DNA from: Akkermansia muciniphila
GTDB lineage: Bacteria; Verrucomicrobiota; Verrucomicrobiia; Limisphaerales; SIAT01
Direction of reading: 5' to 3'
Length of the DNA: 64,000 nt
Assembly (NCBI GenBank): GCA_945900775.1
Contig: CAMDJP010000001.1
Location: forward strand, 81,822 to 145,821
Part shown: piece by piece, positions 31,287-55,594 of the stretch
How positions within the stretch are numbered: the first letter of the stretch is position 1
Layout of the letters: every line of letters begins with the position of its first letter
Position numbers and translations under genes: made by a program
The notes under the pieces: generated by a model
What the model saw: only the letters and a program-made list of their open reading frames with translations
What the model was told of the DNA's origin: nothing
Databases searched by the model: none

Positions 31287-31363
31287 GCGCCTGTAGCTCA
31301 GCTGGATAGAGCATCAGCCTTCTAAGCTGACGGTCGCGCGTTCGACTCGCGCCAGGCGCACCA
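31287..31363 (+). tRNA. tRNA-Arg (anticodon UCU), CCA encoded
   Basis: Hand-folded cloverleaf. Acceptor GCGCCUG/CAGGCGC, D arm GCUC-AGCUGGAUA-GAGC, anticodon arm UCAGC-CUUCUAA-GCUGA, variable loop CGGUC, T arm GCGCG-UUCGACU-CGCGC, then discriminator A and CCA. Confidence 0.95.
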
Positions 31364-49586: not shown

Positions 49587-51104
49587 ATGAGCAAGCGTTT
49601 CTACATTACGACGGCTATTGATTACGTGAACGGCCAGCCGCACCTCGGGCACGCCTACGAGAAGGTGCTGGCGGACGTGATCGCCCGCAGCCGACGCGCG
49701 CTGGGTGAGGAAGTCTTCTTTCTGACCGGTCTGGACGAGCACGGCCAAAAAGTGCAACAGGCTGCCCAGGCAGAAGGGAAGAGTCCGCAGCAGTACTGTG
49801 ACGAACTGGCGGTCGCGTGGCGTGCCTTCGCAGAAAAGCTGAACCTGACGAACGACGATTTCGTGCGCACGACCGAGCCGCGGCACAAAGCAGCCGTGCA
49901 GTCGATGCTCTCCCAACTTCACGCAACCGGACATTTCTACAAAGCGGCCTACACCGGTTTCTACTCGACGCGGGAGGAAACTTTCCTCACCGAGAAGGAT
50001 CGCCGGCCCGACGGCACGTTCGACCCCAGCTATGGCGAAGTGACCGAACTAAAAGAGGAGAACTATTACTTCCGGCTCAAGGAGCACCAGCAGTGGTTGA
50101 TTGATTACATCGAGGCAAACCCGACGTTCATCTACCCCAGCTATCGACGGAACGAAGTGCTCGGGTTTCTGAAGAATAATCCGCTGGAAGATTTGTGCAT
50201 CACCCGTCCGGCGGCACGACTCAGCTGGGGGATTCCCTTGCCCTTCGATTCGAACTTTGTCACCTACGTCTGGTTCGACGCGCTCGTGAACTACATAAGC
50301 ATCCCCGAGAGCCGCGGCGAAACCGCCACCACTTGGCCCGCTGACGCGCATGTTATTGGCAAGGACATCCTCAAGTTCCACGCCGTGTACTGGCCAATTA
50401 TGCTGAAGGCCGCAGGATTGCCCTTGCCGAAGCAACTGCTCGTCCACGGTTGGTGGCAAAAGGACGGGACGAAGATGAGCAAATCCACCGGCAACGTGGT
50501 GGACCCCGTGACCGTGATTGACGAGTGGGGCGTCGACGCCTTCCGCTACTACGTCGTGCGCGAACTGGGAATCGGCCCCGACGGGAACTGGACCGACGCG
50601 GGTTTCCAATCCCGGTACGCTTCCGAACTGGCCAACGGCCTCGGCAACCTCATCAACCGCTCGCTCTCGATGCTCAAACGCTACCGCAACGGCGTCGTGC
50701 CCGCGCGCCAGGATGATCTGGCGCCCGACGCGGCGAAGGCGATGGAAGAGACGATCGCCCACTTGCGCGCCAGCGAATTGCAAGCGGCGCTCCAGAGCAT
50801 CTGGGGCCTCGTGAACCGGGCCAACCAGTACGTGGACCAGACCGCGCCGTTCAAGTTGGCGAAGGATCCTGCGCAGGCGAGGCGATTGGACGAAGTGCTT
50901 TACAACCTTGCCGAGACCAGCCGCGTGCTGGCTGTGTTGCTCGTTCCCTTTCTTCCGACGACCAGCACCAAAATCTTTGCCCAACTCGGTCTCGGCACCA
51001 CCCCCACTCGGCTCGATGCTGCGGCGTGGGGAGGGCTTCCTACTGGACAAGTGATTGCTGGTCCCGAGCCACTCTTCCCACGCAAAGATCAGCCCGCCAT
51101 CTGA
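49587..51104 (+). CDS. metG: Methionyl-tRNA synthetase (short form, no C-terminal Trbp111 domain)
   Basis: 505 aa with a HIGH-type motif (PHLGHAYE) and KMSKS (TKMSKSTGN). Confidence 0.95.
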   Translation: MSKRFYITTAIDYVNGQPHLGHAYEKVLADVIARSRRALGEEVFFLTGLDEHGQKVQQAAQAEGKSPQQYCDELAVAWRAFAEKLNLTNDDFVRTTEPRHKAAVQSMLSQLHATGHFYKAAYTGFYSTREETFLTEKDRRPDGTFDPSYGEVTELKEENYYFRLKEHQQWLIDYIEANPTFIYPSYRRNEVLGFLKNNPLEDLCITRPAARLSWGIPLPFDSNFVTYVWFDALVNYISIPESRGETATTWPADAHVIGKDILKFHAVYWPIMLKAAGLPLPKQLLVHGWWQKDGTKMSKSTGNVVDPVTVIDEWGVDAFRYYVVRELGIGPDGNWTDAGFQSRYASELANGLGNLINRSLSMLKRYRNGVVPARQDDLAPDAAKAMEETIAHLRASELQAALQSIWGLVNRANQYVDQTAPFKLAKDPAQARRLDEVLYNLAETSRVLAVLLVPFLPTTSTKIFAQLGLGTTPTRLDAAAWGGLPTGQVIAGPEPLFPRKDQPAI

Positions 51105-51148: not shown

Positions 51149-51226
51149 TTGGGGTTGTAGGGGCATAACCTGCAGCTACGCTCTAATCCTAACTCCCATC
51201 CCACTCGTTGGTTTGGATTGAAGCTT

Positions 51227-51691
51227 ATGAAGCGATTGGTGCTATTTTTGTCCATCGGAATACTCGCCGTTTCTGAAGCCGGCGCATTGACCGTTCGCGA
51301 AGCGCTCGCAATGGTTGAAACTGGCGCCGAGCGGCCCACCCGTTGTGCCGCCGATTCGGTCATTGGTGGAAGCGGCGAGGTGAGCCGTTTTCAAATCATG
51401 CCCGATGTGTGGCGCGGCTACACCAAGTCCGATGGCTACGACGACCCCGAAACGGCGTGGAAGGTGGCGCGACAAATCTTAGATGAGCGCGCGAAATGGT
51501 TTCAGCGCGTCACCGGCCGCGAACCAAACAAGACCGAGCTCTACGTGCTCTGGAACAAACCCGGACACTTCGAATCGGCAGGTTTCGTTTTGAGCCGAGT
51601 AAAACCCCTTTACCGCGAGCGCGCCGAGCGTTTCTCCAACCTCTGCCATCTACAGGCGACCTCTACGCGCAAGCCCAAGCCGGCCATCTGA
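51227..51691 (+). CDS. Secreted small protein with lytic-transglycosylase (SLT)-like motif
   Basis: Signal peptide MKRLVLFLSIGILAVSEA. GSGEVSRFQIMPDVW resembles the E-S...Q-[IL]-M-P catalytic region of SLT domains. The assignment is tentative. Confidence 0.5.
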   Translation: MKRLVLFLSIGILAVSEAGALTVREALAMVETGAERPTRCAADSVIGGSGEVSRFQIMPDVWRGYTKSDGYDDPETAWKVARQILDERAKWFQRVTGREPNKTELYVLWNKPGHFESAGFVLSRVKPLYRERAERFSNLCHLQATSTRKPKPAI

Positions 51692-51724
51692 CGCGTCAGT
51701 TTTTGGGCACACAATTTTTCCTCC

Positions 51725-51753
51725 TTGAGAAAAATCTGCGGAAGCAGCATAGT
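51725..51753 (+). promoter_or_regulatory. sigma70-like promoter for the structured RNA
   Basis: TTGAGA at 51725-51730, a 17-nt spacer, and CATAGT at 51748-51753. Confidence 0.3.
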
Positions 51754-51759
51754 GAAGTT

Positions 51760-52026
51760 AGCTTTAGCCGGTCCGCCGGCTCGTTCTTTGCCAGTCCGGC
51801 AACGGTTTTAACCCTGCCACGTTCGTGTATCGAAACAAAGTCCTTGAACCGTATTAAATAATACGGGGCCTTGACTTCGACCATCGGCCGTCAGGCCTTG
51901 ATTGGACTTCGAAAGTCGTCGATTGGGCCCCACCTTGTTCCTAAGCGTTCAAAGGAACTGTTTTCCCACGGCGTTACGGTGGGGTTATCTTTAAAACCGC
52001 TCCGGCTTTGCCGGGGCGGTTTTTTT
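51760..52026 (+). ncRNA. Candidate structured RNA of unknown family: either a stand-alone sRNA or a terminator/antiterminator leader of rarA
   Basis: The 372-nt gap contains only short junk ORFs. The element has a 5' hairpin at 51766-51781, a hand-traced 43-bp long-range helix (51796-51849 with 51947-52005), an apical tRNA-like module, and a terminal intrinsic terminator. Ends are approximate. Confidence 0.45.
51997..52026 (+). terminator. Strong rho-independent terminator 37 nt upstream of rarA
   Basis: CCGCUCCGG-CUUUG-CCGGGGCGG forms a 9-bp stem (one G.U) at 51997-52019, followed by UUUUUUU at 52020-52026. Confidence 0.8.
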
Positions 52027-52063
52027 GTTTCGAGTGGCTGCGTCAAATTGCTAAGCTCCGATT

Positions 52064-53437
52064 ATGTCGCAGGTTGAGTTGTTTGCCACGCCGAAGCCGC
52101 AAGAGCCGTCGCCTTCGGCTACGTCGGCAAAGCCTCACCAACCCGCGCCGCTCGCTGCACGAATGCGCCCGCGTACGCTCGACGAGTACGTCGGCCAGTC
52201 GCACATCCTCGCCCCCGGCCAACTTCTCCGACGCGCCATCGAGGCGGACCGCATCCAATCGCTCATCTTTTACGGACCACCCGGCACCGGTAAAACATCG
52301 CTCGCCCAGATCATCGCCAATCAAACCAAATGTCGATTCGAGCGTCTGAGCGGCGTGGAATCGAACGTAGTCGACATGCGTCGCGTTCTCGCCGCCGCTG
52401 CCAATCGTGTGGAGAACACCGGGCAGCCTACGATTTTGTTTGTGGATGAAATTCATCGTTTCAATAAATCACAGCAGGATGTGCTGCTGCCCGATGTCGA
52501 GAACGGTGTGGTCCGGCTCATCGGGGCAACCACGCACAACCCGTTTTTTTTCGTCAACTCTCCGCTCGTCTCCCGCTCCCAGATCTTCGAACTACGCTCA
52601 CTCACGGAAGAAGATCTGCTTGCTCTGGCGAAACGCGCGCTGGTCGACGCCGAGCGCGGTCTCGGTCACATGCGTATCCGAGCCGAAGAGGACGCGCTTA
52701 AACACCTTGCCCGCGTTTCCGACGGCGACGCACGCAAAGCGTTGAACTCGCTCGAAATTGCGGCGCTCACCACACCGCCAAGCGTAGATGGGTTCATTCA
52801 CATCAACCTCGACGTTGCCGAACAGTGCATTCAGAAGAAGGCGATTGTGTACGACGGCGATGGCGACGCGCATTATGACACTGCCAGCGCCTTCCAGAAA
52901 TCACTCCGCGGTTCCGACCCCGACGCCGCGCTCTACTGGCTGGCAAAGATGATTCATGCCGGCGAGGACCCTCGATTCATCACGCGCCGGCTCGTCGTCT
53001 GTGCGGCTGAAGATGTCGGGTTGGCTGATCCGATGGCGCTTGTGTTAGCAATGAGCGCACACAACGCGGCGGAGTTCATCGGCTGGCCAGAGGCTCGTAT
53101 CCCGATCGCCGAGGCAGTCGTATACATCGCCACCGCGCACAAGAGTAACAGCGCCTACAAGGCCGTGGATGCCGCGCTCGAGGACATTCGCGCCGGCCGC
53201 ACATTGCCAGTGCCGGAGCATCTGCGAGACTCTCATTACAAGGGCGCGAAGCAACTCGGTCACGGTGCCGATTATCAATACGCGCACGATCATCCCGGCC
53301 ACTTCGTTCCGCAGGATTACCTCGGTGCCAACAAGCGCTACTACGAGCCGGGCGACGAAGGTGTGGAAAAGAAAATCAAAGAACGCGTCGAACGATGGCG
53401 CGCCTTGCAGGCTGAGGCACGCAAACGAGCCGAATGA
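52064..53437 (+). CDS. rarA: Replication-associated recombination protein A (AAA+ ATPase)
   Basis: 457 aa with PLAARMRPRTLDEYVGQ, Walker A GPPGTGKTS, FVDEIHRFNK, and a MgsA C-terminal domain (HYDTASAFQKSLRGSDPDAALYWLAKM). Confidence 0.93.
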   Translation: MSQVELFATPKPQEPSPSATSAKPHQPAPLAARMRPRTLDEYVGQSHILAPGQLLRRAIEADRIQSLIFYGPPGTGKTSLAQIIANQTKCRFERLSGVESNVVDMRRVLAAAANRVENTGQPTILFVDEIHRFNKSQQDVLLPDVENGVVRLIGATTHNPFFFVNSPLVSRSQIFELRSLTEEDLLALAKRALVDAERGLGHMRIRAEEDALKHLARVSDGDARKALNSLEIAALTTPPSVDGFIHINLDVAEQCIQKKAIVYDGDGDAHYDTASAFQKSLRGSDPDAALYWLAKMIHAGEDPRFITRRLVVCAAEDVGLADPMALVLAMSAHNAAEFIGWPEARIPIAEAVVYIATAHKSNSAYKAVDAALEDIRAGRTLPVPEHLRDSHYKGAKQLGHGADYQYAHDHPGHFVPQDYLGANKRYYEPGDEGVEKKIKERVERWRALQAEARKRAE

Positions 53438-54006
53438 GCACGGACATCATCGCCAGTAAGGAAGCCCTCCGCCGAGAAATGCGCGCACACGGCGCGACAT
53501 TGGCGGAGCGCGAGACGGCTTCCACAGCCCTGCGTGAACGCCTTCACTCGCTCGATTGCTGGCAGCAAGCAGGGGGTGTCTTGTTCTTCGCCCCGCTTTC
53601 GGATGAACCGAACATTTACTCATCAATCCAGCGTGCATTGAATGAGGGGAAGCGGAGCGCCCTCTTACGCTTCAAACCACGCGAGCAACTCTTCGAGCCG
53701 GTGGCGATTATAAATCCTGAGCGCGACCTCGTCGCCGGGCACTTCGGCGTCCGTGAACCGGCCTCGCATTGCCCCATCCTGTCGATGAACCAACTGGACT
53801 TACTGCTGGTGCCTGGGCTAGCCTTCGATTCGCGCGGCGGCAGACTGGGGCGCGGCAAAGGTTTTTATGATCGCCTGCTCGCGGGATCGCACGGAATCAA
53901 GTGCGGCATCTCTTTTGAATGGCAGCTGGTGGAGTCGGTTCCGACCGAAGCCCACGACGCGATTCTTGACTGCATAGTGACGCCGACCCGATGGATGAAA
54001 ATTTAG
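53434..54006 (+). CDS. 5-formyltetrahydrofolate cyclo-ligase
   Basis: 190 aa with LLLVPGLAFDSRGGRLGRGKGFYDRLL. Its ATG overlaps the rarA stop codon (ATGA). Confidence 0.9.
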   Translation: MSTDIIASKEALRREMRAHGATLAERETASTALRERLHSLDCWQQAGGVLFFAPLSDEPNIYSSIQRALNEGKRSALLRFKPREQLFEPVAIINPERDLVAGHFGVREPASHCPILSMNQLDLLLVPGLAFDSRGGRLGRGKGFYDRLLAGSHGIKCGISFEWQLVESVPTEAHDAILDCIVTPTRWMKI

Positions 54007-54016
54007 TCGACGCGGT

Positions 54017-55594
54017 ATGGAACAATTGATTCTAGCGGACAGCGTGCCTCACAACACGACCTTCGTCATCGGCCTGATCGCGGGGCTCTTCGTGATGCTC
54101 GGCTTGCTCCTGCAGGAGCGTTACCGGCGCAAAATGCGCGCAAGTCAGGTCGTCAACGAATTGGAGAACGCGAAGCGCGAAGCGGAAAACATCCGCCGCG
54201 AGGCTCGCCTTGGCGCCAATGAAGATTCCCTCAAACTTCGCGAACAAGCCGAGCAAACAATCGCCGCGCGCCAACTCGAGGTCAGCGAAATCGAAAAGCG
54301 CCAAACGCAGCGGGAGCAGCTTCTCAGCCAGCAACTGGATTCGATTAATCGACGCGAGGTGCGTCTGCACGAACAGGAATCCACCCTCGACCGGCAGCGC
54401 GAAAGGTTCGAGGCCGACCTCCTTGAACTAGCGCGCCTCGGCAAGCAGCACCGCGAACAGCTCCAGCAGATTTCAAAAATCAGCGAAACCGATGCCCGCC
54501 AGCAACTCCTGCAGGAAATCGAGCGGGAGGCATTGCAGGATGCCAACAAGCTGACCGCGAACATCCTCAACAGCGCAAAAAACAGAGCTGAAGACCAAGC
54601 GCGACGGATTATCAGCCTCGCCATCCAGCGATATGCCGGCGCTCAAACAATCGAGACCACCACCACCACCATCTCGCTCGCGGGAGATGAGATGAAGGGT
54701 CGCATCATCGGCCGCGACGGACGCAACATCCGCGCCTTCGAAGCCGCCACAGGGGTGACCGTCCTAGTGGATGACACGCCGAACGCCGTCGTCCTTTCCG
54801 GCTTCGATCCTGTCCGGCGCGAAATCGCGCAGGACGCGATGCAGAGACTTATTCTTGACGGACGCATCCATCCCACACGCATCGAGGAAGTGGTGGCAAA
54901 AGTGGCGGAGGAGATGAGGGAAAGTATCCACAAGGCCGGCGCGGATGCCGTCGCACGTGCGGGACTTCCGCCGCTGAATGACGAGATTGTGAAGACGCTT
55001 GGCCGTCTGCGTTTTCGCCACAGTTTTGCGCAGAACGTACTAGACCACTCCGTCGAAGTGGCTCACCTGATGGGGCTGCTCGCTTCGGAACTCGGTCTAG
55101 ACATCGCGATGGCCAAGCGTTGCGGACTCCTTCACGACATTGGTAAGGCACTCGACCATGAGATGGAAGGGCCGCACGCCATCGTGGGGGCGGAGTTCCT
55201 GAAGCGGCATGGCGAACCATCCGAAGTGATTGACGGGGTGGCGTCGCATCACGACGAAGTGCCGCCGATTGGGCCATGGGGAATCCTTGTCAGCGCAGCG
55301 GACGCAATCAGCGCCTCACGTCCAGGTGTGCGTTCGGAGACAATGACCATCTACCTCAAGCGCCTCGAGGACTTAGAACGTATTGGCACCGCGTTCCCCG
55401 GTGTGGAAAAGTGTTTTGCTGTCCATGCAGGCCGGGATCTCCGTGTGATGGTTCATTCCGACCAGATCGACGACAACGAAGCAGCAGCATTGGCTCGAAA
55501 CATCGCACGGAAAATCGAAGAGGACCTGCACTATCCCGGCCAGATTCGAGTGACCATTATCCGCGAAACGCGCGTGGTGGAATACGCCAAGTAA
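54017..55594 (+). CDS. rny: Ribonuclease Y
   Basis: 525 aa with an N-terminal TM, a coiled coil, a KH domain (GRIIGRDGRNIRAFE) and an HD domain (LLHDIGKA). Confidence 0.95.
   Translation: MEQLILADSVPHNTTFVIGLIAGLFVMLGLLLQERYRRKMRASQVVNELENAKREAENIRREARLGANEDSLKLREQAEQTIAARQLEVSEIEKRQTQREQLLSQQLDSINRREVRLHEQESTLDRQRERFEADLLELARLGKQHREQLQQISKISETDARQQLLQEIEREALQDANKLTANILNSAKNRAEDQARRIISLAIQRYAGAQTIETTTTTISLAGDEMKGRIIGRDGRNIRAFEAATGVTVLVDDTPNAVVLSGFDPVRREIAQDAMQRLILDGRIHPTRIEEVVAKVAEEMRESIHKAGADAVARAGLPPLNDEIVKTLGRLRFRHSFAQNVLDHSVEVAHLMGLLASELGLDIAMAKRCGLLHDIGKALDHEMEGPHAIVGAEFLKRHGEPSEVIDGVASHHDEVPPIGPWGILVSAADAISASRPGVRSETMTIYLKRLEDLERIGTAFPGVEKCFAVHAGRDLRVMVHSDQIDDNEAAALARNIARKIEEDLHYPGQIRVTIIRETRVVEYAK

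Follow-up and report, generated by a model that had tools for sequence, protein, structure and literature searches.

Genes flanking the rarA upstream spacer

The window (the whole stretch of DNA that was analysed, 64,000 nucleotides) contains a spacer of 372 bp between an ORF ending at 51691 and the ATG of rarA at 52064. Downstream of the spacer, Pfam domains identify RarA/MgsA, 5-formyl-THF cyclo-ligase (32% identical to E. coli Fau, E = 2e-19) and RNase Y (Table 1). The rarA stop and the cyclo-ligase start share 4 nt (53434-53437), and the start of rny lies 11 nt past the cyclo-ligase stop, suggesting a tight rarA-fau-rny operon. On the other side, a MetRS gene is followed by an ORF of 157 residues (51218-51691, + strand), for which no Pfam match was found even at E <= 5 and no homologue in any of 160 related loci; the label "SLT-like", given to it in an earlier reading made from the DNA letters alone (the sequence-only reading), therefore lacks Pfam support. 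Apart from the match in the spacer described below, the only Rfam match in the window is a tRNA gene (31287-31360, + strand, 70.5 bits).

Relatives of RarA were taken from genome and metagenome collections. Exact matches of the protein occurred only on contigs of the same organism, which carry an identical spacer. Among the other matches the best have 74-80% identity, and where their labels are informative they mostly name Verrucomicrobiota; the host of the window looks like a member of this phylum.

Table 1. Features of the rarA upstream region and flanking genes (positions in the window)
Feature	Position	Strand	Description and evidence
MetRS	49587-51104		Pfam
Predicted sigma-70-type 6S promoter	51725-51753	+	TTGAGA, 17-nt spacer, CATAGT; consensus scan
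Predicted 5' leader of 6S precursor	51760-51807	+	About 48 nt; precursor role inferred
6S RNA (SsrS) core	51808-51989	+	182 nt; RF00013 match, own covariance model, covariation
Closing stem, 5' strand	51811-51827	+	Pairs with 51967-51985; consensus, MFE, pair counts
Middle stem, 5' strand	51834-51849	+	Pairs with 51947-51963; overlaps predicted pRNA template 51841-51854
Central bubble, 5' strand	51850-51864	+	CGUAUUAAAUAAUAC; unpaired in Rfam and alignment consensus
Apical (terminal) stem-loop	51865-51931	+	Closed by GGGGCC/GGCCCC; MFE
Central bubble, 3' strand	51932-51946	+	With 51947-51958 can form an alternative hairpin
Intrinsic terminator	51993-52030	+	14-bp hairpin 51993-52023, 3' arm ending in T-run; scan
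Predicted rarA promoter	52029-52057	+	Weak -35 TTCGAG, 17-nt spacer, extended -10 TGC-TAAGCT; from conservation
RarA/MgsA	52064-53437		MgsA_C and AAA; Pfam
5-formyl-THF cyclo-ligase	53434-54006		5-FTHF_cyc-lig; Pfam
RNase Y (rny)	54017-55594		Pfam

Assignment of the structured element to the 6S RNA family

The spacer had been noted for its dense RNA-like architecture, which could not be matched to any known family. The latter point was overturned when the whole window was compared with Rfam 15: the spacer matches the 6S RNA family RF00013 with 67.5 bits, above the gathering score of 46.4 (E = 3.5e-11). The alignment runs end to end (model positions 1-187 of 187), is confined to the + strand, and involves the sole Rfam family above threshold at the locus. 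In addition, a covariance model of our own, built from the 10 closest sequences, scored 156.8 bits on the + strand of the window and 20.5 bits on the - strand. The structured element upstream of rarA is thus almost certainly the gene for 6S RNA (SsrS), and as such an ordinary member of an already known family. A stable rod-shaped small RNA had been one of two alternatives offered for the element, and it is this one that holds: the RNA is a rod with its own predicted promoter and terminator, namely 6S RNA.

Fold and anatomy of the 6S core

The minimum free energy (MFE) of 51760-52030 on the + strand is -109.7 kcal/mol, compared with -83.6 +/- 4.9 kcal/mol for shuffled sequences (z = -5.29), and none of 200 shuffles folded as well. 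The fold is a real structure, far beyond chance. It consists of the 6S rod and a separate terminator hairpin; the rod of closing stem, large central bubble and apical stem is seen both in the MFE and in an RNAalifold consensus of 10 sequences. The - strand of the same segment folds more weakly than the + strand (z = -3.69).

Every element listed in the sequence-only reading was recovered at most 1 nt from where it had been placed. All 27 hand-traced pairs in the five outer helices of its long imperfect helix are standard pairs, and the inner helices were found again in both the MFE fold and the alignment consensus; the helix end printed as "47-52005" is a typographical error for 51947-52005. 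In terms of 6S anatomy, the outer part of this long helix is the closing stem and its inner part the middle stem, with the exception of the outermost 13 bp discussed below. The apical domain of about 97 nt is likewise present, and is composed of the two strands of the central bubble together with the apical stem-loop.

Conservation and covariation in related loci

RF00013 matches above the gathering score were found just upstream of rarA and on the same strand in about 22 related loci. These include eight close relatives (L003, L081, L082, L083, L085, L086, L087 and L088) and a set of distant loci (L014, L016, L017, L020, L092, L096-L099, L101, L033, L037, L040, L061 and L072), several of which are labelled Omnitrophota, Planctomycetia, Victivallales, Kiritimatiellae, Leptospirillia or Bacillota, the others being unlabelled. 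One further homologue (L002) was added by our own covariance model with 88.8 bits, and in two loci (L008 and L051) the RF00013 match lies farther upstream of rarA. In all, 6S homologues occur directly upstream of rarA in about 25 related loci, mostly labelled Verrucomicrobiota, Omnitrophota or Planctomycetes.

The linkage of 6S and rarA is frequent, not universal. Using Rfam at E <= 0.1 together with our own covariance model, 6S was not found within 2.5 kb of rarA in eight loci labelled Verrucomicrobiota (L004, L007, L009, L010, L012, L015, L018 and L019), nor in L001, the closest RarA relative (80% identity). Absence from the 2.5 kb upstream of rarA in L001 implies that the linkage has been lost or relocated in some lineages. 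The L001 metagenome-assembled genome (MAG) is labelled "uncultured Klebsiella", probably a mislabel, and keeps rarA, cyclo-ligase and rny.

Compensatory base changes are abundant in the rarA-upstream spacers of relatives. In an alignment of 23 sequences, which was fitted to the model and hence favours structure, 92.1% of the cells are paired (76.8% in shuffles) and 32 of the 44 pairs are changed on both sides, including 15 of 16 pairs in apical helices 6-9. The covariation score of this alignment, 0.417 against 0.165 in shuffles, was not reached in any of 500 shuffles, and sliding the partner by 1-3 columns lowers the pairing to 39-50%. The large size of the effect nevertheless speaks for the structure, as does an independent MAFFT/RNAalifold run on 10 sequences, in which 14 of the 44 pairs are compensatory.

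These data also bear on the notion that the locus holds a chance structure, another rod-shaped RNA that binds RNA polymerase (Ms1-like), or a small protein gene. Short ORFs do overlap the region (51871-52077 on the + strand, 51891-52046 and 51696-51884 on the - strand), and the - strand also beats its shuffles. Against this, the full-length 6S match and the high score of our own model are found on the + strand only, and the variation among relatives keeps the base pairs through changes on both sides. As to Ms1, the window exceeds the Rfam threshold at this locus for RF00013 only, and Ms1, known from Actinobacteria, binds core polymerase (PMC9130861). We consider the chance of any of these readings being correct to be negligible.

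Order of genes around 6S

The co-oriented array of 6S, rarA and cyclo-ligase (51808-55594 including RNase Y) is kept in relatives, both close (L002, L003, L081-L083 and L085-L088) and distant (L017, L040, L092 and L097); the distant ones comprise one Omnitrophota-labelled locus, one Victivallales-labelled locus and two unlabelled metagenome contigs. RNase Y follows 6S-rarA-cyclo-ligase in several loci. The genes upstream of 6S are not conserved among the array loci.

Terminator and competing outer helix

The strong terminator proposed for the 3' end of the element is evident as a 14-bp hairpin (9 of 14 bp being G-C, with pair probabilities of 0.73-1.0) followed by a T-rich stretch that runs to about 52030. 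A hairpin with T-run is found 11-65 nt after the 6S core in nine of ten close relatives, with unrelated stem sequences. In eight of these it is a separate terminator hairpin, 31-65 nt after the core, and L003 has a weaker hairpin, formed on the tail of the closing stem at 11 nt from the core; in L085 a scripted search found no terminator, and a T-run directly follows the closing stem.

The outermost 13 bp of the long helix (51796-99 with 52002-05, and 51803-11 with 51991-99) are not part of the 6S model, except for the first four core bases (51808-11). The sequence-only reading had described this helix and the terminator as mutually exclusive, and from this had derived the logic of a terminator/antiterminator switch. 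The overlap at 51991-52005 is real, so that the two cannot form together; the competition is not balanced, as a fold with the outer helix forced has -97.1 kcal/mol against -109.7 kcal/mol with the terminator, which thus wins by 12.6 kcal/mol, and the outer-helix pairs have probabilities of about 0 at equilibrium.

The idea that the element is a leader acting in cis on rarA, be it a riboswitch, a T-box-like element or an attenuator, with the long helix as antiterminator against the hairpin 51993-52023, could draw on several observations. Some bases of the outer helix (51796-51811 with 51991-52005) also belong to the terminator's 5' arm, the helix is present in the MFE folds computed for nascent transcripts that end at 52000-52015, and rarA lies downstream on the same strand. 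In addition, the outer-helix duplex has an energy of -16.9 kcal/mol, equalled by only 1 of 300 shuffles, and the complementarity is therefore unlikely to be accidental in this genome. It is not shared by relatives, however: complementarity between leader and trailer is absent in eight of them (mean of cognate pairs -6.5 kcal/mol, of non-cognate pairs -8.1 kcal/mol), and in these relatives the leader pairs with the 5' arm of the terminator no better than shuffles do. Moreover, the core is a full-length 6S RNA, and the extra matches in a permissive Rfam rescan of 51600-52150 were all sub-threshold. The cis-regulatory families among them reach only 24-25 bits against gathering scores of 54-59 (trpB motif 24.7 against 59, PyrR 24.5 against 54); these two matches rest on the terminator hairpin, and the others overlap the terminator.

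The segment between terminator and rarA points in the same direction. Relatives share a TTGGGC-17/18-TGnTAAnnT element there, and exactly 6 nt separate its -10-like hexamer from the ATG; the version in the window reads TTCGAG-17-TGC-TAAGCT-CCGATT-ATG. This site was not flagged by a generic consensus promoter scan. No Shine-Dalgarno sequence is present. Judging from this conserved arrangement, rarA seems to be served by a promoter of its own, located behind the 6S terminator, and as the -10 ends 6 nt before the ATG, the rarA mRNA made from this predicted promoter is probably leaderless. A conserved terminator behind 6S and a conserved promoter-like site before the rarA ATG both argue against a leader switch. 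A conserved terminator/antiterminator leader was rejected on the basis of the constrained folds, the duplex energies and the relatives without a competing helix, and a cis-acting rarA leader of any kind is very improbable. The 6S element is an independent gene, with its own predicted promoter and terminator, and not a switch over rarA.

A milder version of such coupling would be a 6S gene with a regulated, leaky terminator, in which the leader-trailer helix, specific to this genome, delays folding of the terminator and part of the transcription reads through into rarA, cyclo-ligase and rny. The 9-bp helix CGGUUUUAA/UUAAAACCG indeed persists in nascent folds until the 3' arm of the terminator emerges, it is unlikely to have arisen by chance in this genome, and the order of 6S, rarA and cyclo-ligase is conserved; in E. 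coli the ssrS-ygfA transcript is dicistronic and processed (PMC7641849, with Kim and Lee 2004 and Chae et al. 2011 as its sources). On the other side stand the failure of relatives to keep the helix, the strength of the terminator (14 bp and then a long T-run) and the conserved promoter-like site that rarA has of its own. We regard regulated read-through of this kind as improbable, if somewhat less so than a dedicated rarA leader, and retain the reading of an independent 6S gene.

The predicted 6S promoter and 5' leader

The promoter-like signal proposed upstream of the element, TTGAGA-17-CATAGT, was recovered by a consensus scan as one of two promoter sites in 1 kb, where 0.3 are expected, and predicts a transcription start near 51760. 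The CTTG of the -35 is invariant in nine of nine sequences (the window and eight relatives), and a -10-like box follows the -35 by about 17 nt in seven of the eight relatives, lying farther upstream in L088. An A/T-rich stretch precedes the -10-like box in the relatives, and the verrucomicrobial -35 and -10-like boxes are located about 55-110 nt upstream of the 6S core.

Transcription from this site would give the 6S precursor a leader containing a hairpin at 51766-51781 (proposed earlier and confirmed by a scan), the motif GTTCTTTG at 51783-51790, and a second hairpin UUGCC/GGCAA at 51788-51802. The nine verrucomicrobial leaders that were aligned (the window, L081-L083, L085-L088 and L008) all share an invariant TCTTT (consensus GTTCTTTG), with variable flanks and spacing. 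In the form [G]GTTCTTT[G/C] the motif is found 8-20 nt before the 6S core, and in most verrucomicrobial leaders it is preceded by a GC-rich hairpin of unrelated sequence. A Victivallales-labelled MAG (L040) has GGTTCTTTC twice upstream of 6S, at about 2250-2300. In distant rarA-linked 6S genes from Omnitrophota- or Planctomycetes-labelled loci, TGCTATAAT abuts the 5' end of 6S instead.

Several explanations of the motif were tried and rejected. It is not a promoter hexamer, as its spacing varies both to the core (8-20 nt) and from the predicted start (+12 to +45), and it is not a general genomic signal, as the window has 2 matches compared with 2.35 expected. Pairing of GUUCUUUG with the conserved CAAAGGAAC of the 3' middle-stem strand, judged by eye in nine loci, was not supported, with compensation in one locus (L008) and disrupted pairs in several (L085, L086 and L087). 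No convincing covarying partner of the motif was found.

In B. subtilis, RNase J1 is known to remove a 5' segment from the 6S-1 precursor (PMC10578484), and because of this we take the window leader, by analogy, to be a segment of the precursor that may carry a signal for processing or binding. The motif might be cut by RNase Y or RNase E, or bound by a protein. More speculatively, and with the odds clearly against it, the conserved leader may be a signal, as yet undescribed, through which 6S precursors are matured or regulated in Verrucomicrobiota and Lentisphaerota; in this genome the leader-trailer helix might also tune read-through into rarA, cyclo-ligase and rny.

Proposed mode of action and pRNA template

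6S RNA acts as an open-promoter mimic that sequesters the housekeeping RNA polymerase holoenzyme and is freed by pRNA synthesis on outgrowth (PMC4793215, PMC12005410 and PMC10406553). By analogy with the E. coli and B. subtilis 6S RNAs, we propose the following course for the RNA of the window. A precursor would be transcribed from its own predicted promoter, start with the leader and end at the terminator, and the core would adopt the canonical rod, with its closing and middle stems, the large central bubble and the apical stem. Mimicking an open promoter, this rod would bind the housekeeping holoenzyme and lower sigma-70-dependent transcription as growth slows. During outgrowth the polymerase would copy the 5' strand of bubble and middle stem, with a predicted start at U51852-U51854, and the product would displace the 3' strand of the middle stem, which could then form the hairpin 51937-42 with 51953-58 and thereby lead to release of 6S.

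In the Rfam frame, GCCGAU44 of E. coli is aligned with ACCGUA51853 of the window, so that the equivalent of U44 is A51853 and the predicted pRNA start is uncertain by about 2 nt. Judging from the template, the pRNA probably starts at U51852 or U51854 with the sequence 5'-A(UA)CGGUUCAAGGA, its predicted 5' end being 5'-A(UA)CGGUUCAAGG. The pRNA of E. coli is 5'-AUCGGCUCAGGGG. The predicted pRNA of the window has a GG near positions 4-6, as is conserved across species in known 6S RNAs (PMC8414754).

When the template 51841-51854 was blocked in silico, the hairpin 51937-42/51953-58 formed and the closing and apical stems remained intact. The local GUUCCU/AGGAAC hairpin of the sequence-only reading is hence real, with these corrected positions, and in the folding model it fits the known pRNA-induced refolding of 6S and not an attenuator.

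Comparison with known 6S genes

The 6S gene of the window resembles E. coli ssrS and B. subtilis 6S-1 (bsrA) in its core of about 180 nt and in the same rod of closing stem, bubble and apical stem. Its template region CCUUGAACCGUAU is similar to CCCUGAGCCGAUAU of E. coli, its 3' strand can, in the model, refold into a hairpin once the template is occupied, as in known 6S RNAs, and like the model genes it has its own (predicted) promoter and terminator. Riboswitch and attenuator leaders are resembled in one respect, in that this genome has a 5' segment able to pair with the terminator's 5' arm. The locus differs from them in having no match to such a family, an unconserved competing helix, a strongly favoured terminator and a promoter-like site belonging to the downstream rarA.

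For the P1 transcript of E. coli, Kim and Lee are said to have reported in 2004 a leader of 9 nt. The predicted leader of the window is longer than this, and also longer than the 11 nt of B. subtilis pre-6S-1 (PMC10578484), and unlike the model leaders it has a lineage-specific motif, GTTCTTTG, behind a GC-rich hairpin. At the 3' end, the predicted intrinsic terminator contrasts with the Rho-dependent termination of E. coli ssrS (Chae et al. 2011, in the form cited by PMC10578484). A terminator hairpin after the rod is also found in B. subtilis 6S-2 (bsrB), where it is part of the 211-nt mature RNA (PMC10578484). By analogy the RNA of the window could keep its terminator hairpin, which would give a length of about 220-270 nt, and it would differ from 6S-2 by the predicted leader.

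As to the neighbourhood, the gene order in E. coli is zapA-ssrS-fau, and the ssrS-fau (ygfA) operon is broadly conserved in Proteobacteria (PMC7641849), while rarA is near 6S in Lactobacillales and near B. subtilis 6S-1 (PMC8414754). The window has both of these published neighbours, rarA and 5-formyl-THF cyclo-ligase, in one co-oriented array with RNase Y. The arrangement differs in each case: rarA lies upstream of 6S in Lactobacillales (rarA-6S-uspA) and downstream in the window, it is on the strand opposite to 6S in B. subtilis and co-oriented in the window, and fau directly follows ssrS in E. coli whereas rarA is interposed in the window.

6S RNA is among the best-characterised bacterial small RNAs, and standard Rfam annotation would name this locus; that an apparent riboswitch-like candidate can be explained away is a useful negative outcome. 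The array unites the 6S neighbours known from Firmicutes (rarA) and from Proteobacteria (5-formyl-THF cyclo-ligase), mostly in genomes labelled as members of the PVC group and Omnitrophota, and an old linkage would explain the presence of both classical neighbours in one array. Finally, the long predicted leader with a motif conserved in the clade points to a processing of 6S precursors beyond E. coli and B. subtilis, the species in which it has been studied.
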